Assembly (NCBI GenBank): GCA_036785375.1 | Contig: JAWMAR010000603.1 | Coordinates: forward strand, 558,001-622,000 | Source: Leucoraja ocellata | Lineage: Eukaryota | Reading direction: 5' to 3' | Length of the DNA: 64,000 nt | Part shown: positions 2,295-61,820 of the stretch, piece after piece | Layout of the letters: every line of letters begins with the position of its first letter | Numbering within the stretch: the stretch's first letter is position 1 | Notes under the pieces: model-generated | Database searches by the model: none | What the model was told of the DNA's origin: nothing | Seen by the model: the letters and a program-made list of their open reading frames with translations, nothing else | Made by a program: the position numbers and the translations under genes

Positions 2295-2483
2295 CACGAA
2301 GATGGACTGGAGTAACTCAGCGAGACAGGCAACATCTCTTCATAGAAGGAATGGGTGATGTTTCGGGTCGAGACCCTTCTTCTGACCAATTCCTTCTATC
2401 TAAAGATGTTGCCTGTCTCGCTGACTTACTCCGGCATTGTGTGTCTATCTTCGGTGTAAACCAGCATCTGCAGTTCCTTCCTA
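2295..2483. mobile_element. Fold-back Penelope terminal-repeat insert
   Basis: Two inverted arms of the common GCTGGAGTAACTCAGCG...GACCCTTCTTC repeat, flanked by direct repeat TCCATTGATTTC at 2283-2294 and 2484-2495. Confidence 0.8.
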
Positions 2484-5830: not shown

Positions 5831-7320
5831 AGAGTTATATCTGGCAATTCACCATCATTGGAGTCCAACTGTAAGGACTAGAGTACGTTTCTTGGCTTCT
5901 CAAGGATTGCATTGAGGGAAACAGTCAATTGAATATTGTGTCGGTTTAGACCTCAGGATTGCAATCATCAATTTCAATGAGGATCACAAGAGTAAATATC
6001 AAGGCGATAAAAGAGAAGCCCAATTATCCTTTCTTAAATTATTTATTCGATATTAAACCAGGTTCAAATCTCTTTTTTGTTTACACTTAGTTTTAGGCAA
6101 AATCCAGCCTTTTCAGTTACATGTCATCAAGAGATGATTCCTGCCCTGAAACAATTAAATCCAAATAAATCTAAACTAGTGGTAGTCATTGGACAGATTG
6201 GTTCAATCTTCGCCTCAAATACAATCTGAACAAAAACTTTCTTGTAACTGCCCCATTTCAAACGACACTACAACTCTCCACCTTCTTCAGCAAGTCATGC
6301 CACGGATCCACCTTCCCCAAATTTTGATTGAAAATCTGGGTTGGAGCACCAAAAACTCACCTATTCATTGCACATTTAAGCGGTTGCATTGTTTACATAT
6401 GGTACGTTCATCATTTTGGTTCAACTCCTGATGACAAATGTAAGGACTCACCACTTCTCACAAGGGTAACCTTTAGTTTTTCCACATGGACTAACAATCC
6501 GCAAGATTACACCCACTTTTGATGCAATTTCTCAAAAAGTCCTCACGGTCAAAAGATTATTAGCCTTGAACATACTCAGAGCATTTACAGCCCTCTGGAG
6601 GTAGAACAAATATTTTCAGGGAGTCAAGGAATTTCTCTTCATCTTAGACCTAAACAGCCAACACCTTACCCTAAAATTATATCCCAGTCCCTGCAACACA
6701 AGGAAACATCCTCTTAACATCCATCATGTCAATCTTGATAAGAATCTTTGATGCCATGAGGTCAACTCTCATTGTTCCAATCTGAAGTATACATCATTTC
6801 TTCCTCTCTCCTATGATTGATAAAGGCAACAACTTTTGCATTGTGGATTTATACCAATTTATAATTTAAAACCATTTATGAAAACCTTCCTGTCTACGCA
6901 TAAACAAACGTAGAAGTGCTAAATGTTACCATCCAATTTTACATTTCTCCTCATTAGCTCTTCCATTTTCATCTATCCATGACAAATGAATCAAATAGGA
7001 AAACAAGGCTCAAAAGTGAGTAATGCCGGTCATGATTGCAACTGTTCTGAGAGAGGGGCCAAGGGCTGTTTTCACATTCCTTAAAAAAAATACTTCTGGC
7101 AAAAACAATGAGAGATAACGTGAGAAACTAAATAAGCTCTATTAATTCTCTGCTTTTAAACAAAGTAGATTGTTTCACCTCTCTGGATTTTGACACTAGT
7201 AGGAAATTAAAAGTAGATACTCAAATTACAAGTCATTTAACAGATACAGTGAATCTATTTTATTTGCGACTAACACTGAATTGCATGTTATGAGAAATGC
7301 TAGCATTGAAGCAGACTTAC

Positions 7321-9188: not shown

Positions 9189-10009
9189 ACAATATCTTTC
9201 CTTCTATATTTATATTTACTGTCTTCGAGTTTTTAAAACCTGTAAATATACAAACATTAGGATGATGAAGAAATCTTTTGGTTTTAATTCCAAGTTTTAA
9301 CAATTGTAGGTCTTTCATACCATATCCAAACAACTAATCATTAATAATTCAGTTCAAGATGAAAAACCATGGATCAAAACATTTATTTTCAAAGCAATGG
9401 TAAAATAGGGTGCAAGCTTGCCAGCTGACTAGGCTGATCCAATGATAGATTTTAACCAATAAAAACTAGATTTCCGATATAGTAATAACAGGTGTACTTA
9501 TGCTTCTGCCAAGCCAGTGCCCAAGTTTCTAACTTCATTTCACCCATAATGATACTCTTAAGTATAGATTCTATCTAGCATCAAATAACATGAACATTTT
9601 TTCAAATCAAATTTTCCCAACTTCCATGAAGATGCAATGTTGAAATGGTTTCAGCAAATTGCCCAACTCCATTGAAATTGTTTTATCAAATGGTAATGTT
9701 CAGTTGTTACATCATTTCTACCTTTATCATGTGAACAATCCATTTTATTTCATGAAATGCAATTTGAGATGTGCAAATTTCCATCAATAAAAATGTAATT
9801 TTGCTTCATCAAAAATTCTATCCTTAAAGAAATGCACTTTAGCGTTTAAATCTGTCTTGTGTAGAAATATTCAACATTCCAATATTCAACCATGATTGCA
9901 TTCACTCCTGATTCAGTCTCCATCTGTTCGGGCATTGATGTTTCTAAATGCTGAATCCAACATGAAGGAATTTTAGTTTGCAAATTCCAAAAGGCAAGTC
10001 AATTAAGAA

Positions 10010-10102
10010 CAATTAAGTCTGAAGAAGGCTCTCGGACCCGATTCCTTCTCTGCAGAGATGCTGCCTGTCCCGCTGAGTTACTCCAGCATTTTGTGTCTAA
10101 CT
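10010..10102 (+). mobile_element. Single-arm Penelope terminal-repeat insert
   Basis: AGTCTGAAGAAGG...GCTGAGTTACTCCAGCATTTTGTGTCTA, flanked by TCAATTAAGAA at 9999-10009 and 10103-10113. Confidence 0.75.
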
Positions 10103-10535
10103 TCAATTAAGAATATGTTTGGCTTTGAAGTTGATCCCCAATGCAGATTCCAATTTCTCATGGCCAATTATGTACAGTTAAGGATAGCTACTCATCAGTT
10201 AACAGATAGTTGAACCAAAATTAAATAGAACAATTATTAAACAGCACTTCCATTCAAGATATGAAAACCCAATTGAATGAAACTCGGCTAATATTTAACT
10301 GGGAATTTTATAATATTACTAGAACAAGTGGGACCACTCACCCATAGCCGACAACTGCGCAGGTGGTGCTCATTTCGCCTTATGCACCCTCCCTCATTTG
10401 TAAAATTTTGAAAAATGCATTTGCACTTGTTAGTTAGCAGAACTCAGTGTACTGTGACATTAAAACAAATGCATGTGCACTTGCTAAGGCTAGCAGGACT
10501 CAGTGTACTTGAAAAGCAACAATGTTGCGAGCAGG

Positions 10536-10734
10536 NNNNNNNNNNNNNNNNNNNNNNNNNNNNNNNNNNNNNNNNNNNNNNNNNNNNNNNNNNNNNNNNN
10601 NNNNNNNNNNNNNNNNNNNNNNNNNNNNNNNNNNNNNNNNNNNNNNNNNNNNNNNNNNNNNNNNNNNNNNNNNNNNNNNNNNNNNNNNNNNNNNNNNNNN
10701 NNNNNNNNNNNNNNNNNNNNNNNNNNNNNNNNNN
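10536..10734. other. Assembly gap
   Basis: Run of N. Confidence 1.
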
Positions 10735-14256: not shown

Positions 14257-14344
14257 ATAATTCCGAGTGAGTAGTTTACAACCCAACGGTATGGGTATTG
14301 AATTCTCCAATTTTAGGTAACTAACCAAACCCCACCACCTTCTC

Positions 14345-14544
14345 GTATAGGAAAGAACTGCAGATTCGAAGGGATACACAAAATGTTGGAGTAACTGGAG
14401 TAATGCTGGATGCCGGCAGCATCTCTGGAGAGAAGGAATGGATGACGTTTTGGGTCAAGACCCTTCTTTAGACCAAAACGTCATCCATTCCTTCTCTCCA
14501 TAGATGCTGCCTGTCCTTCTGCGTTACTCCAGCATTTTCATCTA
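14345..14544. mobile_element. Fold-back Penelope terminal-repeat insert
   Basis: Inverted arms meeting near 14470; duplication CCCACCACCTTCTC at 14331-14344 and 14545-14558. Confidence 0.8.
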
Positions 14545-17500
14545 CCCACCACCTTCTCCCGGTATTTGTCCCCTCCCACCAAATTCCTTCCTCTGGCTTC
14601 ATGTTTTCATCTCTGGCCTTTGTCCACCCACTTGCTAAACAACTCCCACCCCCCTTCACCTGTATTCACCTATCAACCTTTCACTTGCCAGGCCATGTCC
14701 TTGCCCCACCTCTCTACCAGCTTCCTTACCCCAACCACAATCAGTCCGAAGAAGGGTCCCAACCCAAAACATCATCTACCAATACTATCTAGAGATGCTG
14801 TCTGGCCCACTGAGTTACTCCAGCACTTTGTCTTTTTTTCCCCCGAGGTTAAAACTTTTGTTTCCAGATAAAAAATAAATGGCTTTGAGGGCCAAAGTTC
14901 TTGCCACTAAAGTATCAAAACTTAAGAGCTTTAGTTATGTACCCACAATCTTACTGAGCACACTGGAAAGGATATCACTGCAAACCTCAAATATTCCATA
15001 CCTGTAGCTATCTTCAAGCAACAAGACAAATAACACAATTACTGTTGGATTACAAACATCTGCCTTTTGTCACTGTGCATATGAACAAGCTCCCTGAGAA
15101 TCAGAGTTAAACAGCAATAAAACAGACCCTTCGGCTCAATTCTTCCATGGTGCCCACCTGAACGCATTTGCCTCTAAATCTTCAAAAGTTCAAAGTACAT
15201 ATATTTATTCTTACAGATGGCAAAACCAGTTTCCCGTCTCTAAACTTTTAGGAATTGTTCTGAACAAACTTATGCTTCTGGTGTCTTTCATTACAATGTT
15301 GTGGAGGTATGGTACTGTAGAGTGATTATGTATTTTCCAATTTTCAGACAAAAGTTGATTCATGGACATTTAAAAACAAAACCTATTCAGTACTTGGTGA
15401 AGGTCTATACCCAGTTATTTTTGTGATATTAGTGATTTATATATTAAAACTACACAATTGTGAACAAATTACTTGACTTCTTTACCCCAAAGCACTGCAG
15501 GAGCATTCTCACCATGCTGACTGCAACAGTTCAACATGATGGCTCATCTTGTCTTATCTTAAACTAGCTTCGACCATTGCTAAATCCTATCAATGAGTTT
15601 AAAACAACGTTCAGCTTTGGCAATGTAGTGTGCTAAATCATCACTTGGTTCAGCGAGTTAAATAAACATATTTATTTTCAACAACTGTCGGTTTGAATTA
15701 ATAGCTTTACACCACAAACATCAAATTCATCATCTTTAAAGCAGGAAATGTTCCGGTGTTTATTAATAAACAATGCTGATCTCATTTGCATGCAGTGCAC
15801 ATCAGGCAAAGTGATGTGTTGATTTACACCATGCTGTATTTTCTCTGCATTGCCTTCTACTTGTTTTTGGCAGAATCCAGAGATATTCAGCTAATCATCA
15901 TTTAATATAATCTTAAAGTGAATAAAGACCAAGTCTAGCCTTCACTTCAAGATTTTTTTTTCTCATAATACATTTCGTGAATCACAAAACATCACAATAA
16001 CCCTAAGCCGGAAGCAATTGCTAATCCTACAAAAATACTGCACTGATTTGCATGCACTCAATTTGCATTCTAATGTACTAGGCTATATTACAGGTCCATG
16101 AGAGAAATTGCATATTTTGTCAATGCACAATACCCGAATCAGATACACGCAATCACAGAACTGCCAGAGTCTATATTTAATACCCACTCCCCAAGAGCAT
16201 ATTTTTATTTACACAATTTTATGGAAGATGCTTCTTGACTTAAAAGTGGTTGATGTCATAACTATCATTCAAAATCAAAATAGTTTTGATACATCGTTTA
16301 CATTATGCATCCTCGCACAAGGCTCAAATTCACATGCCCCCCCCCCCCAAATTAAATCTCAGTATTATTTAAGGAAGTTATTTAATTTGAAATTCAGACT
16401 ATAGCACAATTTCATTTACCGAGTCCTGAATAATCAATCAAAAAATCGACAAGCAAAGACCGATGAGGATACCATACATGACATGCAGCTGAAGCAAACA
16501 CTAGCAACATACAGGGAAGAAAAACAAGTGCAATGAAAAAGGGAACAGAGAAATACAATTTATAGATTTAATGGAGGAAAAATTGGACAAGGCTCAAGCA
16601 GACCATCATTAGTGCCAAATGGTCTGCTTCTATTGCTCAAAACATTGACATCTTAAAACTATTTGAGAAACAGCCCCTTATTATCGCATTTAACAAAACA
16701 CAACTACTTGGAACATATTGGTAACACCTTGGCACAGCTGAATTTAGGCTCAGTTTTCAATAAAGCAAGAGGAAACCAAGGGACAAAAGAGCAAATTGCC
16801 CAAATGCCTGTTAGTGGAACCGCCAATACTGCCAACAATTACAAGTTTTTCTTTGCAGAGGATAGGAAATTGCCTTGGGCACTTGCATAAGCCCAACTCC
16901 CGAAGTATTTTCATCCATCCAGCAAAACCTCTGCTGAAATGTCAAACTCTTCAATGCACTCTGGATGCCAGCAGAATATTCTGCCCCTTGCTTGTCTGCA
17001 CGAACAGCCTACTCGATTGTTAATCTAGGCAGTGGAGCGCACAGCAGGCATACCTATTCTGCAGGAAACTCACCATGCCCAAAAACAATTCATAATACTT
17101 GACAGTGCTTGCTTGGGGTGGCGTCCAGAATTCCCAAGATAAGATTTGGTTCCATCCTTGAGCATGGCAGAGTGAGCCATCAAGGAAATAAGAGCATGAC
17201 TGGATAAAACTAATTGGGCTACAAGTTCACCAGCCAGATTCTTCAATATGGACTACCATTGTGAAGGTTCAACTCTAATCTCCACTAGCACCCAATCTTT
17301 TAGTTCAAGCCTCTATCTTAGCAACATGACTGGGAAAGGTTTTAGATTTTGGATGAGCACATAGCCTGCCAAAAAAATTAATGTGCAGGTTGGGCAGGAG
17401 AAGAGTTAAAGAAGAACAGGTTGACTATCTACACTGAACATATACGAGAGGGGGGACATAATTATACTATTCAACACAGGATACTCCAAAGTAAAATAAT

Positions 17501-17756: not shown

Positions 17757-18735
17757 GGTAAGAAGGAACTGCAGATGCTGGTTTAAACCGAAGATAGACC
17801 CAAAAAGCTGGAGTACCTCAGCGGGACAGGCAGCATCTCTGGAGAGAAGGAATGAGTGACGTTTCGGGTCGAGACCCTCCTTCAGACTGAAAGTCATGGG
17901 AAGGAAAATGGGAGATATAGATGATGATGTAGAGAGATGTAGAACAATGAATGAAAGATATGCAAAAAAGTAACAATGATAAAGGAAATGGGCCATTGTT
18001 AGCAGCTTGATGGGTGAAAACGAGAAGCTGGTACGGCTTGGGTGGGGGAGGAATGGAGAGAGAGGGAATGCGGGGGTTACTTGAAGTTGGAGAAATCAAT
18101 ATTCATACCACTGGGCTGTAGGCTGCCTAAGCGAAATATGAGATGCTATTCCTCCAATTTGCGTTTCGCATCACTCTGACAATAGAGCAGACCTCGGACA
18201 GAAAGATCAGTGTGGGAATGGGAAGGAGAATTAAAGTGTTTAGCAACTGGGAGATCAGGTTGGTCCAGGCAGACTGAATGAAAGTATTCAGCGAAACAAT
18301 CGCCCAGTCTACGTTTGGTCTCGCCGATGTACGAGTGCACATCTTGAACAAAGGATACAGTAGATGAAGTTGAAGGAGGTGCAAGTGAACCTCTGTCTAA
18401 CCTGAAAGGACTGTCTGGGTCCCTGGAAAGTGTTGAGGGAGGTAGTATTGGGACAGCTGTTGCATCTCCTGCAGTTGCAGGGGAAGGTACCTGGGGACGG
18501 GGTTGTTTGGGTGGGATGGGATGAATTAACCAGGGAGTTGTGGAGGGAACGGTCTCTGCGGAAGGTGGAAATTTGGTTGAGATGGGAAGATGTGACTAGT
18601 GGTGGTATCCCGTTTGAATGATTATCTGTTGTATGCGACAGCTGATGGGGTGAAACGCAAGGGCTAGAGGGACTCTGTATCTGTTGCGACTAGGGAGAAC
18701 AAGGTTGAAGCTGTGGGGTACCGAGGAGACACATG
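17757..18735 (-). mobile_element. Penelope-like element 3' part (frameshifted GIY-YIG domain plus terminal repeat)
   Basis: ORF 18146-18340 reads YIGETKRRLGDCFAEYFHSV...DLPVAKHFNSPSH. Terminal repeat at 17757-17890. Confidence 0.9.
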
Positions 18736-25834: not shown

Positions 25835-26750
25835 TATTATTGTCACAAGTACCGAGATAAAACAAAGTTTTGCATTGTATGTGCTATCCAGGCGGATCAA
25901 ACACAAGTGTGATCATACCACACACAGTACAACAGCTAATACTAAAAGAGAAATATAATGATCAAGCCACAAAGAAAGTGCAGATAATAAATGCAAGGGC
26001 CACAATGAGGTTGATTAGGGATTCATCCTTAGCATGAGCGGTCTGTTCAAAATTCTGACAATAGCATGAGCAGAAGCTGTTCTTGGATCTGGTACGTTGC
26101 TTTCAGTCTTTTGCACCGCCTGCCTAACATAAGGGGGAGGGAGGAGTGACAAGGGTGTAAGTGTTCCTTGATTACGTTGGTTGCTTTCCAGAGGCAACTT
26201 GACGTGTAGATGGAGTCAATGGGGATGGGGAAAGGGCTATTTGAAGCAGAATTTGGCCACACATTTGTGAATGCACATGGAATACAGTGAAGGGCTGAGG
26301 ACCTAGCTTGCGGGGCACAGGTGTTGAGAATTATCGTAGAGGATGCTTTGCAGCGCAACCTTAAGGTCCTGTCCCACTTTCACGACCTAATTCACAACTT
26401 TTTTTACTCGTGGACATTTTTCATCACGCTAGAAAAACACCCCAATCTGCTTGATGCCACGAGTACCTACGACTAGCATCACGGCCTGCTACGACCTACC
26501 TACGACCTCCTATGACCTTGTGACGACCATGCTGCGAGTATGAGTCATGGGCAAACTTGGCAGAGGTCGTGAATTAGGTCGTGAAAGTGGGACAGGCCCT
26601 TTACTGATTGTGGCCTACAGGTGAGAAAGTCAAGCATTCAGTTACAGAAGCAGATGCTGAGGCCTAGGTCCAGGAATTTAGTTCAAATTTTGGTGAAGGC
26701 AGAGCTATAATCAATAAATAGGGTGTCTGATGACGATGTTCTTGTTATCC
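25835..26750 (-). mobile_element. Old Rex1/Babar-like LINE 3' fragment, interrupted by a MITE
   Basis: Shares GAAGCTGTTC.TG.ATCTGGT with 45403-45423, and has the TTATTGTCACA tail at its left end. Confidence 0.55.
26364..26600. mobile_element. PIF/Harbinger-type MITE
   Basis: About 35-bp terminal inverted repeats AGG(T/G)CCTGTCCCACTTTCACGACCTAATTCAC. TTA on both flanks (26361-26363, 26601-26603). Internal ACGACCT repeats. Confidence 0.9.
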
Positions 26751-30465: not shown

Positions 30466-30879
30466 TCACTAAACCTATGAACAAAACACAGGAACCCACG
30501 TTATTTAAAAACAATGCATCTACTTGTATATATATATTTTTAAAAAGCCAACAAATGCTCTAAAAGTTTGCAGGGAGGCGAGGATCAGAAGAATGGAGCA
30601 AAGAGTTTAAATCCACGATTCCAACTCTCTTAACAAATAAGACTGGAGGGAACTTCCTGAACAAGTAAAAGTCTGCAGCAGACTCCAACCACATAAAGAA
30701 AGTGCGTCCCTTCCCAACCACAAAAGTATAAGTTACTTTACCCTAAATGACAGGCAATCTGCTAACATTCCACATGACAAAGACGAGTTAACCTCGACTG
30801 GCAAACCCCATGTAAGTGTTTTTAAGAGGGTAAATCACCAGTATTAAGTTTTGTGTAGAGCAGCCTCCAGCAGTGTTTG

Positions 30880-31400
30880 CTCCGCGGGGGCGAACTCCTT
30901 CACAGATGTTCCCCCTCTTTCTGAGGGTTTAAGCGGAGCTGCGGCCGTCCCGCTCTCCCGGGGAGGGCACCGGGCGACGTTTCCAGCCGACGGTGCCTCT
31001 CCTCCGCCCCGGCCCGGCCCAGCCCGGCCTCCCAGTTACCCTGCTCTTGCCCTCCCGAGGCCCAGGCTCCCGCTCCCTCCCTGCCGCCTCAACTTTGTCC
31101 CCCCCACTCCGTCAAACATCCAACCTCCAGCGGCGCCGCTCTCGGGTGAGGGCTTCGACTCCCCCACCCCGCGATCGGCCACCGTGCCGGCCTCCACTAG
31201 TAGGGTTGGGCTGGGCGGGAGTGAGTGAGTGGGCGCGTGAGGCGGCCTCAACCCTCGCCCTCCGCAACCGCCGATCCTTCAAGCGGACTTTCTTTGGGGG
31301 GGGGGGGGGGGGTAACTGAGTGAGAGGGCTGAGCCGCGTCACCACGCCGTGTGAGGACGCTGTATCCCTCCGAGCTGCTGCTTGTGCAATCATGTACCTT
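30880..31400 (-). promoter_or_regulatory. TCF12: CpG island: TCF12 promoter and probable non-coding exon 1
   Basis: Abrupt GC/CpG-rich block about 0.4 kb upstream of the ATG exon. GC boxes (CCGCCC near 31003, GGGCGG near 31213). Candidate minus-strand donor AGG/GTAACT at 31040/31039. Confidence 0.8.
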
Positions 31401-32329
31401 CCTTGCCTGCCCTTCTCTGCAGGAGACAGACAGACTATGCAGTGTGCAATCTAATGCTTACACTTGCATCTTGGTGGATGTTGAGATTACAAAAAAAGAA
31501 TGATAATGAGTGCGAAGGATCCTTTGTTTGCGCGGAGTAGGCAGCGGTATGTTTTCCCCTGTATTTGATTGACGCGGATTAGTTGATGGGGTCGAATTAC
31601 ACGCATGGTCAGTCAGATGTTATCTTCCTGTAGTACGGAGGCCAATATACACACACACATATATATTCATCCTGGAGGCAATCTTTAATGACTTCGAAAT
31701 AACTGGCATCAGTCGAAGAGAACAGAACCATATCAACAAATAGATGGCAGTGGTAATAATGTTACTTAAAAACTATGCAACTGCTCATGTTGATAAAGAT
31801 AGGCTACACAGTTTTTAAACTTGGAATAATTTTAATTGTGCATTGTCTGGAATCGTGGCTTGTGTGAAACTATTTCATTGTCATAGACATTGGAAGATCA
31901 AAGCTATATCTGGACAAACGAGACAATCCTTGGAATTAATTAATGCCTTTAGAAAGGAAATCGCTTTATCATATTAACAATAACTAACGCGTTGAATTAT
32001 TCATACTTAGTTGGAATTAATGTTTATTTTTGTCATTTACATATGTCCGAACTCAACAAGATATCCAACAGTATGCTTTTCACTCAAGATTCCAGCATCT
32101 GCAGTCTCTTGTGTCAGCCACAACATATCTTACTTTCAATTTAATGGGACACTCAAACATGATGGCGATATGAATGTAATTTTAATTAAGAGTGTGGGAT
32201 TTCTAAATCTGATTTGGTTTAATAACAATCACCACAAAAATACTCGAGATTGAAAAGAGATCGAATTAATAAAAACCCAAATGCAGAAACTAGCACCAGT
32301 TTTCTTGACACAAACCTGCGTTCATTCAT

Positions 32330-33076: not shown

Positions 33077-33235
33077 TAAGAAGGAACCGCAGATGCTGTA
33101 AAATCGAAGGTAGACAAAAATGCTGGAGAAACTCAGCGGGTGGTGCAGTATCTATGGAGCGAAGGAAATAGGCAACGTTTCGGGCCGAAACCCTCTTCAG
33201 ACAATCTGAAGAAGGGTTTCGGCCCGAAACGTTGC
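33077..33235. mobile_element. Asymmetric fold-back Penelope terminal-repeat insert
   Basis: A full arm plus a short inverted arm; duplication CTATTTTAAGGTGTT at 33062-33076 and 33236-33250. Confidence 0.85.
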
Positions 33236-34493: not shown

Positions 34494-34596
34494 ATATGTT
34501 TAAGAAGGAACTGCAGATGTTGGAAAATCGAAGGTACACAAAAATGCTGGAGATACTCAGCGGGTGCACCGCTGAGTTTCTCCAGCATTTTTGTGT
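34494..34596. mobile_element. Short fold-back Penelope terminal-repeat insert lacking the hammerhead part
   Basis: Arms turn at CAGCGGGTGCA|CCGCTG; duplication ACCATCTAATTTACTTA at 34477-34493 and 34597-34613. Confidence 0.85.
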
Positions 34597-36830: not shown

Positions 36831-36953
36831 TTTTTAGTCGCTATTTTGAGATTTCTCTGTGCGCAAGTTGACTGTCAGGGTTCATTCATTAAAATAGTGG
36901 CCACACTTCAAATATAAAGCGCTTTAACGTGTGCGGAAAGGAACTGCAGATGC

Positions 36954-37188
36954 ACAAAATTGCTGGAGAAACGCGGCGGGTGCAGCAGCATCTATGGAGC
37001 GAAGGAAATAGGCGACGTTTCGGGCCGAAACCCTTCTTCAGACTGCAGACTTCAGGGTCTGAAGAAGGGTTTCGGCCCGAAACGTCGCCTATTTCCTTCG
37101 CTCCATAGATGCTGCTGCACCCGCGGAGTTTCTCCAGCAATTTTGTGTACCTTCGATCTTCCAGCATCTGCAGTTCCTTCTTGAACAC
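36954..37188. mobile_element. Young fold-back Penelope terminal-repeat insert inside an older copy (about 36930-37310)
   Basis: About 90-bp arms (36954-37043 and 37057-37146) with 2 mismatches and a 13-nt spacer. Duplication AAGGAACTGCAGATGC at 36938-36953 and 37189-37204. Confidence 0.9.
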
Positions 37189-37786
37189 AAGGAACTGCAG
37201 ATGCTGGTTTATACCGAAGATAGACACAAAGTGCTGGAGTAACTCGGCGGGTCAGGCAGCACCTCTGAAGAAAAAGGATGGGTGATGTTTTGGGTTGCGA
37301 CCCTCCAGTAGTTTGAGATGCTCGGAAGGCTGCTATTAAAAAAAGTATTTCCGTTCAGCCAATAACTTTGAAATTCTATGCAGTGTTTGTGTGCGCATAG
37401 AACATCTAACATAGAAATCGCAACCATTCGTCAGTTTTTCTGCATACTCGCATCGTTTAAATATTCCAAACAAAGATTGGCTCTGTGCGAGCCAGTTGAT
37501 CTGCATCAATGTTACTGGTTTAGTTGGAGCATGATGGACGATGGTGATGATTGGGTCACAACCAGAAGACTGGATATGTGCAGTCCAGTCATATCTTCAG
37601 CTGATGTAAATGGTGAATAGGAATGAGACTGGATAGGGTGGGGTCATTTTCATTCATGGATCTAAGGACCTTGGAGAGATACATAACATCAGGAGGGAGA
37701 TAGATAACACAAATTATCACAGAATTTTCTCAGGATAGAGAAGTCTAAAAATAAAGGACATGGGTTAATGGGGGAAAGATTTAGAG

Positions 37787-39935: not shown

Positions 39936-40342
39936 ATGTTTAATTGTTCTGTTCATTGGATAAACAGGAACACCCATATTCTAAATACATGCTAAAGAGT
40001 GGCTCTCGGTCTCAGCTAGGCTGCTGTTCTGTTCTTCAAATTAGAAACAAAGAACTGCAGATGTTGGTTAATACACAAAAGTACATAAAGGAAGAAGGGA
40101 CGAAGGGTCTCGACCCAAAACGATACTTATCCATGTTCTCTAGATATGCTGTCTGACCTGCTGAATAACTACAGCACTTTGGGTCCTTTGGTTTTAAACA
40201 TACATTTATCATGGTGACCATCATAACCTGGGGATATACAAACCATTTCATAGGTTAAGTCGAAGTGGATTCTGCTATAAGACATCAAATATTGCTCTGC
40301 AAAGAGGCCTTATCATGAAAAGAGATATTTACTTTAATACAA

Positions 40343-40434
40343 GGTAGACAAAAATGCTGGAGAAACTCATCGGGTGAAGCAGCATCTATGGAGAGAAGGA
40401 ATAGGCAACGTTTCGGGTCGAGACCCTTCTTCAG
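40343..40434 (-). mobile_element. Single-arm Penelope terminal-repeat insert with intact hammerhead core
   Basis: Minus strand reads CTGAAGAAGGGTCTCGACCCGAAACGTT. Flanks ACTTTAAT(A/G)CAA at 40331-40342 and 40435-40446. Confidence 0.8.
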
Positions 40435-42509
40435 ACTTTAATGCAACACCATTCACATCCATTTCAAGACACTTGTAATGTGTTTTTATAGCTAATCAAA
40501 TACTTCTGATGTTAGTCACTGCAATGCAATTTAGTGCAATGTTGAAGTAGGAATAATGAAGCATGTGGCCATGCCAAAGAGGAAAGTGATGTAAACAATG
40601 CGGAATTAGTTGAGGAAATATAACAGACAAGAAGACTGATCCTTCCAGTCTGGACCAGATACCATGGATATTATTCTAAGGAATGATATATTCATTCTCA
40701 ACACAGTTAAGCACACAGACACTATAAAATAGACAAAATTAATTTAGTCTGATTTGCCATATTCTCTTCCCTCGGGGGCTTAATTGTTTCAAAAGTATGA
40801 GGATAATTCAGTACATTTTCTACACGATTTCTCTCATGAAAAGTCTAAATGTGCAGGCTCTCTTCTGAATTTCACTAACAGCTTTGGTAATATTAAGCAT
40901 CCTTCTGGTTTACAACATAATGACCTAACACAAAGTCACCCACATGCAATTGTGTCGTACCTGGCTGGTTCTGCACGCTTTCAGCAAACCAAAAGTTACT
41001 TGAGCAGGGATGAGCTGGATGTGCTTTACCTTGGGAGACAGATGATTCATTTTCATCAGGGACATGTCATTGCTCCTGGTTACTCTATTAACATGTTCAC
41101 TGATCTGTCTAACAACAGAACTTTAGGCTGTGATCCGAGCTTAATGCCTCCGAAGAATAATGTGACCATTCATAAGAGACGCTCTCACTGATCTTCGGCC
41201 ATGAAAGCTCTATTCCAGATGCTGAATGATTCTCCCCAAATGCCACTGTCGACTGCAGTATAGATTACTATTTACTTAGGAATGATTTTCTGATCCAGCT
41301 ATTCTATGCATAACTTTTTTGTGCATTCTGCATAAACCCACTAGTTCTTAGAAAATAGGCAGGTAACAATTTCCAGTTGCAAATGGACCCTCAATTAACA
41401 TTGTAAAAATGTCAAGGCTAAACTGGCATTGCCAGGAACAGCAAGTGGTAAATTAGTAAGTACAGGTTTGACTCTGTTTATTATTTGCAAGGTGAGAATA
41501 ACTTAATGTAACTTAGTGTAATACAAAAGCATGTCATTCACCAAATGAGTCTACTGAATAAAGAGATTGATTACTATTGATTACTATACTGCATATTTGA
41601 AGAAGAGCCAGTTAGCGTCAAGGCAGCTATGCATGACATTAATTTAGCAATATTTTGTGGATTGTATACCAACGCACAGAAAAAAACAGCTTGCGTTTCT
41701 GAAGTTCAATGAGAATTTTACTCAAAGAATAGCGGTATAATATAAATTTCACTTACAAGTTGTAGCAGGGTTTCTTTGCATGAATGTAAAAATCCTCTTT
41801 GTATTAGTGTTTTCCCACTTCTTGGGTTCTGGAAGTGCTTAATTTCTGCAGTAAATAATTTTGGAAGTATTATGTAAGGTATTACGTTAAAATACAACTT
41901 AAATGTCTTTGGAGATGCCTGCTGTGTGAAATGCGTTACGTTTGTTTTGTGTGCTGTAACCAAGAGCTTAAAAGTAGAATGGAAAATCTGTTATTGCCAA
42001 AACACTATTGGTCATTAGCCAATTCAGCCAATTGAAACTTTCCCCATAGATTTGGAACCAAATGTGTTTTGAATTCCTTTACTGAAATTGTATTTTTATC
42101 ATTTAGTATCATTTTGAGTAAGAGAATTCTTCCTGGTATTTCATTTTATCCAAATTCACTTGTTCCTGTATAAATTCGGAATAAATTTCTATGTTTTTTT
42201 CTAAATTGAAATAATATCCTTGGCTTAGAAATGCCATTTAACATTTTAAATCTTAACTATAACCACTTTCTCCTAAACTACAAAGCCCCGGCATTTTTAA
42301 CATGTCCTCCTGGTTCCTTCTCCTTTGGATTTGAATGTCTTATTGTATTTACATCCTTTTTGTTTCAAAGCAACCTGATGAGAAGAATGCTTAATTTTCT
42401 TATTCTTATTCTTATTAAAGAATTCTTATTAAAGAATTCTTATTAAAATTCTTATAATCCTTACAACTGTGAAGACACTTTGTTACAGAGTTCCATCGCA
42501 TCACATTTA

Positions 42510-45184: not shown

Positions 45185-45795
45185 TTGTGCGCTATCCAGT
45201 CAAATCATTCTGTACTTGACTACAATCAAGCCATATACATGTAGTGCAGAGAAGAGTGTTGCAACTGAGTTCAGAATATATAGTGTTACAGCATTATAGT
45301 ATTACAACTACAGAGAAAAAAATTCAAGTGAGTTAGGTCAGAAGATCAAGTCTACACCATAACTTATGGGAGGACTGTTCGGTTGTCTGATAACAGCAGG
45401 TAAGAAGCTGTTCCTGAATCTGGTGGTATGTGCTTTTAAGCTTTCTATCTTCTAGCTGATGGGAGAAGGGTGGAGATGGAATGATCAGGGTAGAAAGGGT
45501 CCTGGATTATGTTGGCTGCTTTCCTGAGGCAGCTTGAAATGTAAGAGTCGGCTAGTCTGTGTGATGGGCTGGACTATATCCACAACTCTCTGAAATTTCT
45601 CAAAGTCCTGGGCAGAGCAGTTGCCAAACCAAGCTGTGATGCATCCTGCTAGGATGCTTTCCACAGTGTACCTGTGGAATTTGGTTGGGGTCGATGAAGC
45701 CAAACCAAATTTTCTTAGTCTTCGGAGCAGTAGAAACGTTGGTGTGCTTTCTTGGACGAGGTTTTAATGTGGTTGGTCCAGGACAAATTGGCAAA
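45185..45795 (-). mobile_element. Rex1/Babar-like LINE 3' fragment
   Basis: ORF 45485-45703 reads FHRYTVESILAGCITAWFGNCSAQD, a Rex1-type C-terminal motif. Confidence 0.75.
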
Positions 45796-46019
45796 GCATC
45801 TAAAGCAGTTGTCCATTCCGTAGATAAGGTATGAGAACAGTTCCTGATAATCTGTGGTGCTTAGACTTTCTTTTGGGAGCTTCTCATCTTCTCTATCTTG
45901 TCCTCTATTCTAGCAGTTTATCCTCTGTTACTTCCCAGCTGTGCTCAATTCCAGGGTGAAGGTGCACTTGGCACTTCTGTCCTAACCGTGCTGTAACACA
46001 GTTCCTAAACAACCATAAA

Positions 46020-46250
46020 AGTCAATACCTCAACTTCTACAGATGTGCCATAGAAAGCATGCTGTCAGGTTGCATAACAGCTTGTTTTGGAAACAGCTCT
46101 GCCCAGGATAACAGTTGTAGATGTAGCCCAGTCCATCACACAGATCAGACATCATACCATTGACTCCATCTGCACGTTACACTGCCTTTGAATAGCAGGC
46201 AAAACAAAGCTTCTCAATGTACCCCATTACATGTGACAATAATAACCTTA
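46020..46250 (+). mobile_element. Rex1/Babar-like LINE 3' fragment
   Basis: Reads FYRCAIESMLSGCITACFGNSSAQD; tail ACATGTGACAATAA. Confidence 0.7.
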
Positions 46251-47758
46251 AACTGATGAATGGATAGGAAATGTGTAGGAAGGAACTGCAAATGCTGGTT
46301 TAAACTGAAGATAGACACAAAATGCTGAAATAACTCAGGGGGGGGGGGGGGGACACAAAATGCATTCCCTTAATAAATGTTTCCAATAAAACAAAAGCCA
46401 CAAAAACAAGCCCTGCTCAAAACTAAACATATTATAGTTCCCAGTGATTTTCCTGATATGTGCGACTTGAAGCACATAAAAAGCTTGTGAGGATGAGTTA
46501 TATAGTATAACCACACACATTTCTGTTTATTCTTCCATAATTAGCACACCTACTGTGTCCCAGAATTATTAGAATTTTCTTTTTTTTTTTGATGCTTTGT
46601 TCACTTTCATCTATTTGTGCATCTCATTGGCATTGATTTTTCTGTCTCACAGAAAGAGTCTCAACATACAAATATTTGAGGGTGTGTGCTCATGTTCTCC
46701 AGTCTGAATTCAGATGCATATGGCAGATGATGTACAAGTGCAACAAAGAAAGGCAACACTATACATATGGAGGGAATGAAGAAGACATTCATTGGGCTGT
46801 TGAAATAGTGCCAGAATCATTCAAGAGAAGACTCATGAGAAGGAAGTGTCATAACAGCATCCTTTGCCTTCTCTTCAGGCAGTGGTTCCATCCTTTCTGT
46901 ATCTTCCTGTGGAGGCTCAAAACTCCTCCATCTCCTTCAAACCTTCACAGCAAGTCACCTTGCAAGACTTGTGTGACTATCATGAGTTTAGCCAAGTTAT
47001 ATTGTGGAAGCCCCTTGTGGTAGAAGTACGTCTGCAGTTGATAGTTAGTTGTATGTTCAACACCTACTCTGGTGTATGAATAACACACTTCATAAATGTT
47101 TCCAATAAAATAAAACCTACAAAAAAACAAGCTGTAGGTTGAAGTTAAACGAGTTCAAGACAAGATTTTTAAGCCTTCTTTCATCTCCCTCTAGTATAAA
47201 CACCTGTATAGAGTTGTTGAGTTGAATGTTCATCCTCTGTGCTGAAAATAACATGTCTAGTCATCTATTTATTATTTTTATTTCTCTCTCCAGGTCTTCT
47301 ACAAAAGGAACATTTCCAAGAACCTCAGCAGGTGCACACAATCAATAATGTATTTCTGAGCCATAATTCAAATGTTCTCCAGTTTGATCCTAGATTTGTT
47401 CTGAGTTACCTGAACCCAGCTGGTAGCAGTTGGCTATTATAATTGGCCAAGTCTGACCAAAGAGCAAACAATATAAAGGGAACATAAATTCTTTATTCCT
47501 TCTGTCCAACCCACCCTTCCCTATCTCCTCTCTGACATGCTACATGAAAGCTGTGATGATGAAATTGCTTCCTAACGTTCACTAGCAGAATATTCTGAGG
47601 TTTGTAAAACTGCGCTCCAGTACCTTCGAGGAGAGAGTAAAGAGAGGCAGAGAAAAGCAGTTGGTGCATTAACTGAGAAGTACCGCTGATTTCTTAATTT
47701 AATGTTCCTTAACAAAGACTTTGAAATTCAATGGTGCTGATGGAAGCATGCGAGTAAA

Positions 47759-48350
47759 GAGCAAACTTTACCTCCCCCCTCGACTCCGTTCAAGGACCCA
47801 AGCAATCGTTCCAGGTGCGACAGAGGTTTACCTGCATCTCTTCCAACCTCATCTATTGCGTCCGCTGCTCTAGATGTCAGCAGATCTATATCGGTGAGAC
47901 CAAGCGGAGGTTGGGCGATCGTTTCGCCGAACACCTCCGCTCGGTCCGCAATAACCAAGCTGACCTCCCGGTGGCTCAGCACTTCAACTCCCCCTCCCAC
48001 TCCGTCTCCGACCTCTCTGTCCTGGGTCTCCTCCATGGCCACAGCGAGCAGCACCGGAAATTGGAGGAACAGCACCTCATATTCCGTTTGGGGAGTCTGC
48101 ATCCTGGGGGCATGAACATCGAATTCTCCCAATTTTGTTAGTCCTTGCTGTCTCCTCCCCTTCCTCAGCCCCCCTGCTGTCTCCTCCCATCCCCCAGCCT
48201 TCGGGCTACTCCTCCTTTTCCCTTTCTTGTCCCCACCCACCCCGCCCCCGATCAGTCTGAGGAAGGGTTTCGGCCCGAAACGTTGCCTATTTCCTTCGCT
48301 CCATAGATGCTGCTGCACCCGCTGAGTTTCTCCAGCTTTTTTGTGTAACC
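47759..48350 (+). mobile_element. Young 5'-truncated Penelope-like element with open GIY-YIG endonuclease domain and terminal repeat
   Basis: ORF 47815-48141 reads NLIYCVRCSRCQQIYIGETKRRLGDRFAEH...LEEQHLIFRLGSLHPGGMN (IY-CxxC-YIG, catalytic R, E and N). 10-bp duplication TGCGAGTAAA at 47749-47758 and 48351-48360. Confidence 0.93.
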
Positions 48351-50089
48351 TGCGAGTAAAACATGTTGGTTGTTGGGGAGTTGTTCAAATTTAACAGTGC
48401 CTGAGGCCCAATAAAGTAGCGTTATGAAACATAGCTTACTAAAGAATAGTCTTCCCATTGTCCACCTGCACCTGCCATACAAAATAAATGGATAAATATG
48501 GTGCTCGGGCTGGACTTAAGTTACTATGGGGAAGGGGAAGGTGGTGAGGATTCAGTCAGGGATCAGAAGTGGAGGTTGAAGAGAGGATTGGCTGTTGGTG
48601 ATTAGTACTCGTGGGACTTATGATGGGCACTTGGGCATGGTGAGGGGTCAATGAAGAGGTTGGAGAGTTGAGAATCTCTGATCACCAGCGAGATTGTTGG
48701 GAGATCAGAATCTGGGGTTCAGAAGATTCAGGCATAGGGGATGTAAAGTCCACATCAGGAGCCAAGGAGAGTTCTAGAGTGGATGGGCTTCAAAATACTG
48801 AGTAAAGTCGATCATTTACAAACATCCTTCATTCATGAGATAGACAGGAGCCATCCATACACAAGAACATTCAATAAAGTCAGGCTGGCCTCAGCTCCGC
48901 TCTGTGCCCGATCTCCATAGCGCTCAATCCTTCAAACATGTATGTACCCACACTTTTATATTCTTCTCATGATCCCAGCCTTCACAATACTCCCTGGGAG
49001 AGAATTATAGAGATACACACCCTCTATGTGTAAACATTTCAGATGCACCTCAGTTTGAAACAACCAAACTTCATCTTGAAACTATGTCCCCTCATTTGAG
49101 ACTCTCCCTCTTGAAACATTCCAACATCTGCTTTGTCATGTCCCCATAGGATCTTATAATGTTCATTCAGATCACCCCTCATTCTTCTAAGCTCCAAAAA
49201 AACACCGAACCTATTTAAGGCTCTTGAGGAACAATTTACTCAATTTGCCTGACAAATCTCTTTTGGATTGCCCCCATTGATGCTACTGTATATCCTTTCT
49301 TAGGTAATGGAACCAAAACTATGTGCATTTATATTTGTTTTCTTTCCAACAACTTTTCTCAAGCTTCCTGTCCCTGAAAATATTTGCCACATTAAGCAAC
49401 AATTAGTTACATAAAGCAATCCTTAGATTGATGACAACATTAAAAGAACATTTAATATGCAGAGGCCACAATACCTATGACACATATGTTACACTCATCC
49501 TCGAATACCTCCGCAACTGGTCCATGGCAGGCACTATCTCCCTGGAACACCTGGATAACAAAGGCATCTGCACCAGATTCCTATTTATTAATCATAGCTC
49601 ATCCTTCAGCTCCACCTTCACGCTAACCTGAGAAAGGAACTAGAGACAAAGCTTCGAGATAAGGGGTTGATCATTTAAAACTGATACATGTGGACATTTC
49701 TCTTGCGGAGGGTAATTAATTGTTAAAATTCTCTACTGCCAAGAAGGATTTCTCACATAACACCACTATTGTCGTGGTACCAACACTGCAGCAGGTCTAT
49801 GGGGTTCTCTAGCACCTTTGGAACTGTGCGTTTGCCAAATTATCCACATCCTTAGGACAAATAGAAGAATATTCCAACTGTTCATTTGCCCCCAGTAGAT
49901 GCTGCCTGACCCACTGAGCTCATCCAGCTGTTTGTTTATTTGCAGAACATTCCTGTTGCTATAGCAAACCTGACTGGGTTAAGCTAATTTTATATATTAA
50001 GCACTTATTCCTAATCAGACAGCAACCAATAGTTGATTATTCCCAATACATTCAGGCATGACAAAGCTTTGATTCTCATTTACCTTTGT

Positions 50090-50762: not shown

Positions 50763-51141
50763 TAGAAACATAGAAAATAAGTGCAGGAGTAGGCCATTTG
50801 GCCCTTCGAGCCAGCACTGCCATTCAATATGATCATGGCTGATCATCCAATATGAGGAGAAGGCAGGAACGGGGTACTGATCGTGGATGATCAGCTATGA
50901 TCACATTGAATGGCGGTGCTGGCTCGAAAGGCCGAATGGCCTACTCCTGCACCTACTGTCTATTAGTCAAGCATGATTTCCCCTTCATAAATCCATGCTG
51001 ACTGACCGATCCTGTCACTGCTTGTCACTGCTATTACATCTTTAATAATCAACTTAAACATCTTCCAATGTCAGGCTAACTGGTCCATAATTCCCTGTTT
51101 TCTCTCGCCCTCTTTTCTTAAAAAGTGGGGTTACATTAGCT
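50763..51141. mobile_element. CR1 composite: minus tail, plus tail, then a minus RT fragment
   Basis: 50763-50850 is the reverse complement of the CR1 tail, 50853-50962 is a forward tail, and 50965-51141 matches about 665-855 reversed. Confidence 0.8.
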
Positions 51142-52892: not shown

Positions 52893-53120
52893 AACAAACC
52901 CCACAAAGTGCTGGAGTACTACAGCGGGTCAGGCAGCATCAATGGAGGATATGTATAGATGATGTTTTGGGTTGGGACCCTTCTTTGGAGTCTGAAGAAG
53001 GGTCCCAACCTGAAACATCACTTATCCATGTCCTCCAAAGATGCTGCCTGACCTGATAAATTATTCCAGCACTTTGACTGTTTTTTGTAAACCAACATCT
53101 GCAGTTCATTGTTTTTCCCT
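52893..53120. mobile_element. Older fold-back Penelope terminal-repeat insert
   Basis: Inverted arms meeting near 52988; degenerate flanks TTTCAGAGGGCA and TTCCAGAAGGCA. Confidence 0.75.
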
Positions 53121-54544
53121 TCCAGAAGGCAGTTGGGATTGAACCACGTTGCTGGGTTTACATTTGCTAATGTGGATCGGCAAGAAAGCAGCCTTCCTTC
53201 CTTCCTTCCTTGAAGGGTTCAGTGAACCAGATGGGATTTTACAACAACCCAGTACTTCCAAAGCCACCATTATTGTTACTAACTTTACATTTCAAAATAT
53301 ATTTATTTACTTGAATTTAAATTTTCCAGCTGTTATTGTGGGATTTGTACTTCTGTTTCTGGACCAATAGTCCAGGCCTTTGGATCCAATCCAGTAACTT
53401 ATCCATTATATTCCTGTATCCAGAGCAGCTGCACAAATGTGAGAAACAGTGCTGTGGCCGACAGAACTGTTTAATCCCTAGAAATGGGAGTTTTTTTAAC
53501 CAATTTACTGCAAAGGGATATAGTATGGAAATGCGAAGTTTGATTTTATGAAAATAGCTGCACTTAAACTACCTTCCATAAAAAATATAGGCTTTTTAAC
53601 ATGCCAGATAAAGATTATTTGAACTGGCAAGATGGACTGAAAACATTGTGCATGGTGATTTGTACAGAAACACAGTGAGTGTGAAATTCAGCACTCTGCA
53701 GGTGATCTAATTTCTATGACTGGAATTGAAACGAGCAGAATTCCGTTATATATTTTAACTGCATTTTGTGCTTTCAGTAATTAACTTCCCAATGCATTTA
53801 AATCCAGCAATAACAAGAGGAGAACAGATAATACAATCCTTGGTTCTGCTTTATTTTCCATGCAAAATTGGGAAATTAGAAAATAAAACTGAATAGGATT
53901 GTATTACAAATCACAATTTCAGTGTTGCATTTCTGCTGAGCTATGCGAGGCAGGTGTGGTTGTTATATAATTGGCATCTGCAGCTCACCTGCCCATCACC
54001 AGACGGAACAGTGCTGACCTGGGCTCAACCAACTGGAGACGCATTAGAAATACAAACTACGTTGTGCCGGACAAGGCATCAATCCTGGGTCCATGCTATT
54101 ATACAAATTGCATCACCAATTAAAAAAAAATTGTTTTGGATGTTTAAAAATAAATCTTGTGACTCACTTTCCTGGAAAGATGCTGGTGGCTGATGCATTT
54201 AAGAAGCTTCTAGACAAATACGTAAATCCCTAGAAATGGGAATTTTTTAAACCAATTTACTGCAGAAGGAATACTTGAATTGCTAAGGCATGGTGGGCTA
54301 CGCACTAAGAGCAAGTAAAACAGATTAGCGTGAATGGGTGCTTGATGGACAGTATGGGCGTAGTGCGCCAAAGGGCCTGTTTTCGTGCTGTATGACACTA
54401 TTCAACTTTATTTAGGATTATGATGATCATTAAAGCAAACCCGATTTTCGCTTCTGTTATCTTCAGATAATATGCTGACCAGATAAAAAGATCACTGATA
54501 CCATGTTCAGCAGGGCAAACTCCCTGCAAAAAGAAGGCTGCTTA

Positions 54545-54695
54545 AGGGTCTTGACCCGAAACAGGTCTGAAGGGTCTCGACCCAAAATGTCACCTTCTCA
54601 TTTTCTCCAGAGATGCTGCCTGGCCCGCTGAATTACTCCAACGTTTTGCAGCTATCTTTGGTGTAATGCAGCAACTGCAGTTCTTTCCTACACAA
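54545..54695 (+). mobile_element. Penelope terminal repeat with tandem hammerhead-like segments
   Basis: AAGGGTCTTGACCCGAAAC is followed directly by AGGTCTGAAGGGTCTCGACCCAAAATGTCACCT and then the rest of the repeat. Confidence 0.75.
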
Positions 54696-60300: not shown

Positions 60301-60874
60301 TACTATTTATACAATAACACCATACTCGGTTACAGCAAACAATCGGCAATAATAGACACCCTTCCTCCCCCCCGGTATAACAATGGTTTACTGTACACTG
60401 AAAAACTCAACTGTGGCAATGCATGTTCAGCCTCACCAAGATATCATGTGTAAATGTTGATCATATAAATATAGCCACTGGTTAATTAGATAGATGACTA
60501 GAATGACTTGAATCCACATAAGCAAAGAGATGATATACACCATCAAAATAGTGTTTCATGGTTTGGAGCAGTGTAATTGGGATTCTATTATAGCTATATT
60601 AAGCCAGAAAGCCTAAAGCCAATGTGCAGATTGCTAACTCTTTACACTCTGCATTCAGCTTCTGCACTGCCGGGGATCATGGGAATGGAATTACTGTGGT
60701 TCAACTCGCACTAAAGCATGAGACGAAGGTTCTTTAACCCACTGAATGTTTTTTTTTTTTAGATCACCAGACTTATCAAACTGCTATTAGAGATTCAATA
60801 CGATCTGGGCAGGGTTTTATTTTCAGGTCAGATATGAAGAATGGGATCTTTTGTCATGACACCAGAACAGTGCC

Positions 60875-61820
60875 TGCAAATGCTGGTTTACACCGAAGGT
60901 AGACACAAAATGTGGTGTAACTCAGGCAGCATATCTAGATAGATGGAATGGGTGACGTTTTTGGTCAAGAAACGTCTTCAGACTGAGTCAGGGTAGAGGG
61001 AGACACAGAGATATAGAAGGGTGAGGTATGAAAACGAGATTTCAAAGGTGACGAAGCTCAAGGAAAATGTAGAATAGATCAGCGTTAGCTAGAAGTCGAC
61101 AACGAAGCATACAAAGATAAAATTTAATCAGGACAGTCAGACTATTGGGAGAACAAGGATGGGGGGGGGGGGGCTTAGCGAGAGGTTCTAAGCTGCCCGA
61201 GCGAAATATGAGGGGCTGTTCCAATTTACGTTGAAACAGTAGAAGAGGCCCAGGACAGAAATGTCACGTTGGGAATAAGAGGGGGAGTGTTTAGCAACTG
61301 GGAGATCATGTAGGTTAAGGCGGACTGAGCAGTGGTGTGCTGCGAAATGATCACTGAGCCTGCGTTTGGTCTCGCTGATATATAGCTCACACCTGGAACA
61401 GTAGATGAGATTCAAAGAGGTGCAAGTGAACCTCTGCCTCACCTGAAAGGTCTGTTGGGGTCCTTGGACGGAGTTGAGGGAGGAGGTATAGGGACAGGTG
61501 TTGCATCTCCTGCGGTTGCAGTGGAAAGTACTTGGGGAGGGGGTGGTTTGGGTGGGAGGGATGAGTTAACCAAGAAGTTGCGGAGGGAACGGTGTCTGCG
61601 TAAAGGGGTGGAGTTATGGCTTGTAGTGGGATCCCGATGATGGCAAAATGTCAGAAGATTATGTGCTGTATGCGACAGCTGATGGGGTGAAAGGTGAGGT
61701 CCAGGGGGACTCTGTCCCTTTTGTGACTGGGGGTAGGGGGAGCGAGAGTGGAGCTGCGGGATACCGAGGAGACACTTGTGAGGGCCTCATCAATCATGGA
61801 AGTGGGAACCCCCGTTCCCT
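60875..61820 (-). mobile_element. Decayed Penelope-like element 3' part
   Basis: ORF 61188-61442 reads RQRFTCTSLNLIYCSRCELYISETKRRLSDHF. Colinear with 17757-18735. Confidence 0.88.

Follow-up and report, generated by a model that had tools for sequence, protein, structure and literature searches.

Head-to-head pairs of Penelope-like element ends in a 64-kb window of a skate genome

Features of the window

The window (the whole 64-kb stretch of Leucoraja ocellata DNA that was analysed) is repeat-rich, has a 40% G+C content and contains one assembly gap (10536-10734, 199 N). The insert at 36954-37188 is a head-to-head pair of pLTR (pseudo-LTR) ends of a Neptune-type Penelope-like element (PLE). 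Five further inserts are inverted pairs of the same repeat (Table 1); each insert is referred to below by its first position. A Pfam search of 9 of the 38 listed reading frames identified no host gene. The inserts at 33-37 kb may sit in a first intron, and a GC-rich stretch at 30848-31450 looks like a CpG island. Other repeats include a 239-bp MITE-like element at 26363-26601 with 36-nt terminal inverted repeats (94%) and a further repeat at 45556-46144 that forms nested inverted repeats of 32 and 78 nt and spans approximately 590 bp.

Table 1. Coordinates of the PLE-related features in the window.
Feature	Position	Strand	Description
Inverted pair, family 2	2295..2483		12-bp duplication; lacks an intact core; long arm begins at approximately the predicted cleavage site
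Inverted pair, family 2	14345..14544		14-bp duplication; no intact core; nested in older PLE 3' UTR (~14270-14840)
5'-truncated, frameshifted family-2 PLE	17760..18730	-	CX4CxxC linker, endonuclease, 3' UTR, pLTR with tail
Inverted pair, family 1	33077..33235		15-bp duplication; GUU cores on both strands
Inverted pair, family 1	34494..34596		17-bp duplication; both arms cut 5' at palindrome; no hammerhead region
Target-site duplication, left copy, 16 bp	36938..36953		Exact match to 37189-37204; family-2 tail sequence
Short arm	36954..37043	-	pLTR from 5' boundary to arm position ~90, without tail
Minimal type I hammerhead core	37014..37041	-	GUC triplet; helix I of 2 bp
Junction insert, 13 nt	37044..37056		Short repeats of adjacent arm end
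Long arm	37057..37188	+	pLTR with ~35-nt tail
Minimal type I hammerhead core	37059..37086	+	Predicted cut between 37086 and 37087
Target-site duplication, right copy, 16 bp	37189..37204		Exact match to left copy
Older decayed family-2 pLTR copy	37189..37306	-	Its tail is the landing site; tail remainder ~36929-36953
5'-truncated family-1 PLE	47758..48355	+	GIY-YIG endonuclease end, 3' UTR, pLTR without tail
Inverted pair, family 3	52893..53117		Decayed 14-bp duplication (11 of 14)
Decayed 5'-truncated PLE	60872..61812	-	CX4CxxC linker, endonuclease, pLTR

Structure and target site of the 36954 insert

Among the 13 inverted repeats found by a search of the window, the pair 36948-37043 / 37057-37152 ranks best (96 nt, 96% complementary, 13-nt spacer). 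The arms of the insert agree at 89 of 91 bases and diverge outward from the centre, i.e. they lie head to head, with a right arm of 132 nt and a left arm of approximately 90 nt. The 13 nt between them may represent a templated insertion, and the short arm has 1 nt of microhomology with the duplication. The arms differ solely at 36974-36976 and 37125, by three changes to G (plus strand) in GC-rich stretches; at 37125 the family majority (98%) is against the G. These changes may be sequencing errors, in which case the arms would be identical.

Contigs of three organisms (one set each) and poly(A) RNA reads from one run of a relative were aligned to 37030-37700, with 158,486-176,738 contigs mapped per run. 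In these reads and contigs, clusters of loose ends mark the long arm: one before 37057, one behind 37152 and one behind 37187.

The 16-bp duplication is itself PLE tail sequence, and the older family-2 copy to its right ends at the duplication edge, its last bases resuming left of the insert; thus, the family-1 insert landed in an older family-2 tail. The letters at loose ends across the family agree with this reading of the left flank. The left 'duplication' could instead have been a left-arm tail that had lost 17 nt by deletion, but this reading was rejected: the flank continues family 2 while the arm is of family 1, and the duplication edge is exactly where the older copy ends. According to PMC11167929, the tail is recognised by PLE endonucleases, which may nick the pLTR of their own element.

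Other inverted pairs and solo copies

The original prediction counted at least six inserts of this repeat in inverted pairs, five with exact 12-17 bp duplications, and six were found. Inserts 2295, 14345, 33077, 34494 and 36954 are flanked by exact duplications of 12, 14, 15, 17 and 16 bp, respectively (duplications of at least 12 bp occur at 1 of 2974 random position pairs), and the sixth, 52893, retains 11 of 14 bases. In the same order, the six inserts are 189, 200, 159, 103, 235 and 225 bp in length. They are covered by three subfamilies, discriminated by loop II, each of which gives fold-backs, and both arms belong to one subfamily in every insert. The arms of 2295, 14345 and 36954 share letters absent from every other listed pLTR copy in the window. 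The letters common to the 36954 arms are not private, since each is present in approximately 30% of the family depth.

A pLTR profile built from 11 window copies produced 34 hits in 64 kb: 12 are the arms of the six pairs, four are the ends of longer PLE copies and the remainder are solo copies or weak fragments. Two of the six inverted inserts are nested inside older PLE copies (14270-14840, in the 3' UTR; 36929-37306, in the tail). A solo pLTR at 9999-10113 is flanked by an 11-bp duplication, and part of the target sequence is repeated once more at its 5' junction. At 54540-54600, a family-2 pLTR is preceded by a short direct tandem of the hammerhead region. Joints of the pLTR unit running tail to head are present in all three contig sets (13-29 contigs per run) and hint at retrozyme-like tandems.

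Parent element

As originally predicted, the repeat terminates GIY-YIG copies at 17.8, 48.3 and 60.9 kb, where it follows a C-terminal endonuclease and a pyrimidine-rich 3' UTR; a decayed example lies at 14.7 kb. The Pfam GIY-YIG match (E 4e-4) falls under the curated cut-off. Because the repeat follows the endonuclease and 3' UTR, with a CX4CxxC linker upstream, it is identified as the pLTR. In the 47758-48141 frame, two cysteines are positioned between the GIY-like and YIG motifs and are followed by later histidines, a stop codon, the 3' UTR and the pLTR, so that a C-terminal GIY-YIG endonuclease with a CCHH motif stands upstream of the pLTR as in endonuclease-positive PLEs. The optional tail of 30-40 bp, the tandem and inverted insertions and the variable duplications (11-17 bp) are also those of such elements.

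Relatives of this endonuclease frame were found at 60-87% in skate, ray and shark proteins; the closest named relatives are 28 hits among 118 candidates, the best of them (75-87%) in Leucoraja. PF00078 (RT) is present in two longer relatives, the window copies themselves being 5'-truncated. A metagenome protein scan returned 21 distant loci (30-62% identity), which were left aside, and exact-pattern scans of metagenome, genome and viral contigs returned no match. The CX4CxxC linker occurs in frames 18309-18689 and 61188-61565 and in relative P0002. A CX2-5CxxC linker between the RT and the endonuclease is a mark of Neptune and also of Nematis, and it rules out Penelope/Poseidon (PMC8557442). 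In vertebrates, Neptune and Poseidon have been reported. Judged by this linker, the parent PLE would be Neptune-type; the 5'-truncated window copies have no full RT.

In the four longer PLE copies (48252-48258, 17886-17892, 60982-60988 and 14741-14747), TCA precedes the pLTR start and follows a pyrimidine-rich tract, with divergent sequence upstream. This TCA boundary is the usual start of the short inserts. Two origins were considered for the fixed 5' boundary. It could be a transcription start, given the initiator-like TCAGT and a 'GA' before GTCTG that might be a copied cap; this 'GA' is seen in three of the joint rows listed, joint letters being listed for 12 of 671 rows. It could also be a splice acceptor, given the pyrimidine tract and CAG. 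A scan for bacterial promoters, a poor fit for this DNA, gave no match. In D. virilis, an intron ends at helix I (PMC4209133).

Hammerhead motif

The predicted hammerhead core of the 36954 insert, CUGAAGA-A-stem II-GAAA-CGUC, is present at 37059-37086 on the plus strand and 37041-37014 on the minus strand. Its assignment to the minimal type I class also stands: the core boxes, the CUGAnGA motif, the extra base before stem II, G10.1-C11.1, a palindromic helix III (15.2/16.2) and the place in the pLTR, and less clearly the short helix I, are as described by Cervera and de la Pena (2014, PMC4209133) for PLEs of metazoans. Unlike in those hammerheads, stem II is 4 bp here rather than 7-8. A second stem II variant exists, as had been noticed, and so does a third with the loop CCCA.

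Two parts of the prediction are overstated. Cores on both strands are found in this insert and in 33077 (2/6) but are not a general trait: 52893 has a core on one strand only, with a helix III mismatch, and 2295, 14345 and 34494 have a strict core on neither strand. Similarly, the insert has a GUC cleavage triplet, but C>T at 37086 in 52-73% of the summed depth gives GUU, the most common triplet of family 1.

In a comparison of 18 copies, stem II is paired in 94% of cells (with U-A or U-G as the fourth pair and a variable loop) and helix I in 52%. Helix I has 2 bp in its natural element context and reaches 4 bp only in the 36954 plus arm, using junction bases. Covariation in these 18 copies was not above that of shuffles (431 of 500), and no stem II pair had changed on both sides. 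An Rfam search of the window detected no hammerhead family, even at E values up to 1, and gave 11 weak hairpin-type hits, all below threshold. A single minimal motif is reported not to cleave, and dimers to cleave at a low level (PMC4209133). The same paper describes pairs of minimal hammerheads in Schistosoma that occupy opposite strands at a distance of 100-700 bp; unlike these, the cores here are approximately 18 nt apart and wholly paired with each other.

Integration of the inverted pairs

Each of the six inserts has one tailed long arm and one shorter, untailed arm, an outcome with a 1.6% chance if tailing were random with even odds. Five of the six short arms end at profile position ~90-98, the exception being 33077, with a short arm of only 37 nt and 6 nt of microhomology. 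The 3' ends are bimodally distributed in the 28 window copies whose E is 1e-3 or lower (12 at ~90-109, 15 at 121-127 and one at 37); one of these ends was adjusted by hand, as the profile ran into the duplication. In the RNA reads of the relative, the loose-end clusters behind 37152 and 37187 are 35 nt apart and coincide with the pLTR end and the tail end. The cluster before 37057 is seen in all four runs, and full-length copies add to it. Many 5' ends lie 0-3 nt before the CUGA box, a position 30 nt upstream of the predicted cut.

From the pairing of a tailed with an untailed arm, and from the five of six short arms at the solo-copy end, we infer that a single uncleaved RNA was the template on which both target strands primed. 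The endonuclease would nick both target strands 12-17 nt apart, giving rise to the duplication. Reverse transcription would start internally at two preferred sites separated by approximately 35 nt, one at the pLTR end (~90-100) and one at the tail end (~131), with each nicked strand priming at one of the two sites, probably on the same RNA. Both copies would run toward the 5' end of the RNA and stop mostly 0-3 nt upstream of the CUGA box; because copies reach upstream of this box, the template would not have been cut by the hammerhead. The two new 3' ends would be joined head to head, with microhomology over a few bases or a short templated insertion at the joint. The product would have a tail on one arm only and encode no protein, with its hammerhead predicted to be sequestered in either read-through transcript. 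In L1 twin priming, both target strands prime on one RNA, which results in an inversion with junction microhomology, and the two parts copy different stretches; unlike there, both arms here copy the same RNA stretch.

We lean slightly toward the detail of this scheme, i.e. both nicks priming on one uncleaved RNA followed by head-to-head joining. A fuller version is offered tentatively and may well prove wrong: that the mini inserts record PLE integration, with an enzyme dimer priming both strands on a single uncleaved RNA at the sites bounding the tail, copying to TCAGT and joining the products head to head. If true, single-RNA dimer priming would explain inverted pLTRs with a tail at one end only, and arms starting at the predicted cut (2295; joints of run X6, described below) would be the first genomic sign of in vivo PLE hammerhead cleavage. 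Counting against a single template, the partner arm is the top match for only two of the six short arms (34494 and 36954); for the other four, another window copy scored equal to or higher than the partner arm. No empty orthologous site was recovered for these inserts.

The main competing explanation is snap-back, in which priming occurs once at the tail end, the cDNA (or an antisense template) self-copies the first arm and the second target end captures the product. An antisense-template or self-priming origin is favoured by Arkhipova (2013, PMC3846280), whose discussion lends it support. Snap-back of cDNA would yield the same centre junctions as twin priming, which counts against twin priming, and several junctions suit it: centre overlaps of approximately 2-7 nt or a 3-nt loop are found in 2295, 14345, 33077 and 34494, the 34494 junction is palindromic, and the short-arm ends of 33077, 34494 and 36954 have 6, 3 and 1 nt of microhomology (centre overlaps were read directly; microhomology values were determined by script for three of the six inserts and by direct reading for the other three). 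A similar pair formed by a CR1-like LINE also speaks for it. The shared stopping point of five of the six short arms and of the solo and ORF-linked copies is, however, not predicted by snap-back (rough p of 2e-4 for the clustering, in a 13-nt window picked after seeing the data), and we regard it as possible yet rather unlikely.

The CR1-like pair lies at 50770-50963 and is a head-to-head arrangement (87 nt, 87%) of the 3' end of this LINE, which is present at ~935-2140; it has no clear duplication. Because a LINE end forms such a pair, head-to-head geometry needs no PLE-specific chemistry.

Hairpins and transcripts

The original prediction that either strand forms a hairpin of approximately 90 bp agrees with the folding energies predicted for 36930-37210 (-228 and -224 kcal/mol). 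In the predicted hairpin the core bases are unpaired with a probability below 0.003, and forcing the hammerhead fold is predicted to cost 51 (+) or 46 (-) kcal/mol. As the arms diverge from the centre, the antisense arm is made first in a transcript from either side. The suggestion that the inserts seed working ribozyme motifs is not borne out: the two cores lie on opposite strands, so no transcript has the two sense copies of a dimer, and full pairing is predicted for the sense core. A dimer is probably needed by minimal motifs of this kind. With one sense copy per transcript and its core sequestered, the ribozymes on both strands are predicted to be a by-product of duplication, silenced by their arrangement. 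The seeding of dsRNA by the inserts is plausible. Most likely, an insert is dead on arrival and dsRNA is a side effect when a host transcript crosses it.

In the poly(A) run of the relative, of which approximately 5% was read, 30,395 of 12.9 million reads (0.24%) carry the repeat. These reads are of one of two subfamilies, represent both strands equally and in 98% of cases run on into other sequence. Such abundance, together with the siRNA that Penelope inverted repeats yield in Drosophila (PMC3681739), would suit hairpins that selection maintains because their siRNA or edited dsRNA silences the parent element. We consider this improbable: older pairs decay like neutral DNA (arm complementarity of 83-97%, cores lost), and the unique flank at 37329-37700 is covered by no RNA read in this run. 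Nor is there an excess of editing when RNA is compared with DNA of the same species, as A>G/T>C places number 73 vs 44 (ratio 1.66) and transversions 106 vs 60 (ratio 1.77), in a comparison that is weak because the species is not that of the window, copies are pooled and the library is fragmented. No molecule-end cluster indicating cleavage was reported in this one run, which is a weak test. A search of sequencing runs listed no RNA run containing this locus, a result that says nothing about its expression. With six long hairpins in 64 kb, skate-like genomes may have a large dsRNA load, and such hairpins can mislead microRNA annotation.

Independent insertions or a copied family

Both the PLE origin and the very high abundance of the repeat are supported: the summed depth of the first arm bin is approximately 3 x 10^5 times that of the unique flank in all three contig sets, a depth that is not a copy number. 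The original prediction went further and described a propagating fold-back family, which is not supported. The centre (spacer) bin has a summed depth of 2,286-5,886 vs 8.1-12.2 million in the next bin, so that the 36954 junction bin represents 0.03-0.05% of the depth of the adjacent arm in the three whole-genome runs. A clonal fold-back family is not compatible with a centre bin below 0.05% of the adjacent arm. Non-autonomous fold-back or MITE-like elements have many copies with the same ends and centre; here, centre junctions differ in all six window inserts, and these fall into three subfamilies. The inserts are very probably by-products of PLE insertion. That they are head-to-head pLTR ends, each made anew at integration by the element's own enzyme and not derived from a fold-back master, is likely as well.

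Counting against independent origin, some junctions recur well above single-copy depth, such as that from 37089 to 37057 in run X6 (depth 1207 vs approximately 42). Recurrent joints in this run lead from 37089, 37090, 37092 and 37147 to 37057, with A or GA between, among the 15 printed of 841 joints found. Three of them lie 2-5 nt past the predicted hammerhead cut; the joints may be inverted or tandem.

A non-autonomous fold-back element whose hairpin transcript the PLE enzyme mobilises as one unit would account for this raised depth of a few junctions in one relative and for six inserts in 64 kb, all with duplications; non-autonomous, hammerhead-bearing PLE derivatives do exist in the form of retrozymes (PMC7229834; bioRxiv 10.64898/2026.07.22.740005). 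In addition to the low depth of the 36954 junction and the three subfamilies, no junction or length (103-235 bp) is common to two window inserts, and the outer end of the short arm draws on bases of its own target site, something unnecessary for a unit that is copied. We therefore judge a mobile fold-back unit very unlikely. Least credible of all are two solo pLTR insertions lying head to head by chance, DNA rearrangements or assembly fold-backs: solo copies are dense (the 34 profile hits) and independent adjacent copies are known (40099-40200 with 40338-40436; the 37057 arm with the 37189 copy), but a single exact duplication encloses both arms in five of the six inserts (null 1 of 2974), the arms are 0-13 nt apart, of the same subfamily and like age and head to head in all six, and they are unequal, unlike a sequencing fold-back.

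Relation to known elements

It had been left open in the original prediction whether this form was known, and it has been described (PMC3846280, PMC8557442, PMC4209133). Inverted pLTRs with a tail at one end and a target duplication are textbook PLE structure (Arkhipova 2013, PMC3846280; Craig 2021, PMC8557442). The former reports a direct pLTR with an adjacent inverted pLTR that is 37 bp shorter, a 31-bp tail on one of them, 8-10-bp duplications and head to head as the most frequent arrangement; the latter describes an inverted 5'-truncated copy as typical and the tail as often at one end only, and states the origin of inverted pLTRs and one-sided tails as open. Like these endonuclease-positive PLE inserts and those of Schostak (2008, PMC2377424), ours have head-to-head pLTRs, a 30-40-bp tail restricted to one end, a single duplication enclosing the entire insert and a palindrome or overlap at the junction. 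Unlike the inserts described in those papers, they consist of the two ends alone (103-235 bp) and are very abundant.

The protein of an anole PLE (the Poseidon element PAc; Frangieh 2024, PMC11167929) cuts and extends both strands and is a predicted dimer, with two internal RT start sites bounding the tail and uncleaved RNA as the main template. The inserts studied here resemble PAc in having two 3' end positions, one on either side of the tail, in copies extending 5' beyond the hammerhead cut and in insertion into their own pLTR. They differ in their Neptune-type assignment, and head-to-head inserts are not derived from the two start sites in the sections of that report cited here. Non-LTR retrozymes (PMC7229834; bioRxiv 10.64898/2026.07.22.740005) are likewise protein-free, short and pLTR-related, with a type I hammerhead. 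They are, however, direct tandem repeats with a hammerhead in each, described as self-cleaving and circularising, whereas the arms here are inverted and predicted not to cleave.

Beyond the cited papers, as far as their consulted parts go, we found no account of an ORF-less inverted pLTR pair or of this element in cartilaginous fish; Arkhipova 2006 and supplements may hold one. The inserts thus seem to represent a known PLE insertion geometry in a lineage where it is apparently uncatalogued. A family this short and abundant offers many natural products for telling twin priming from snap-back.
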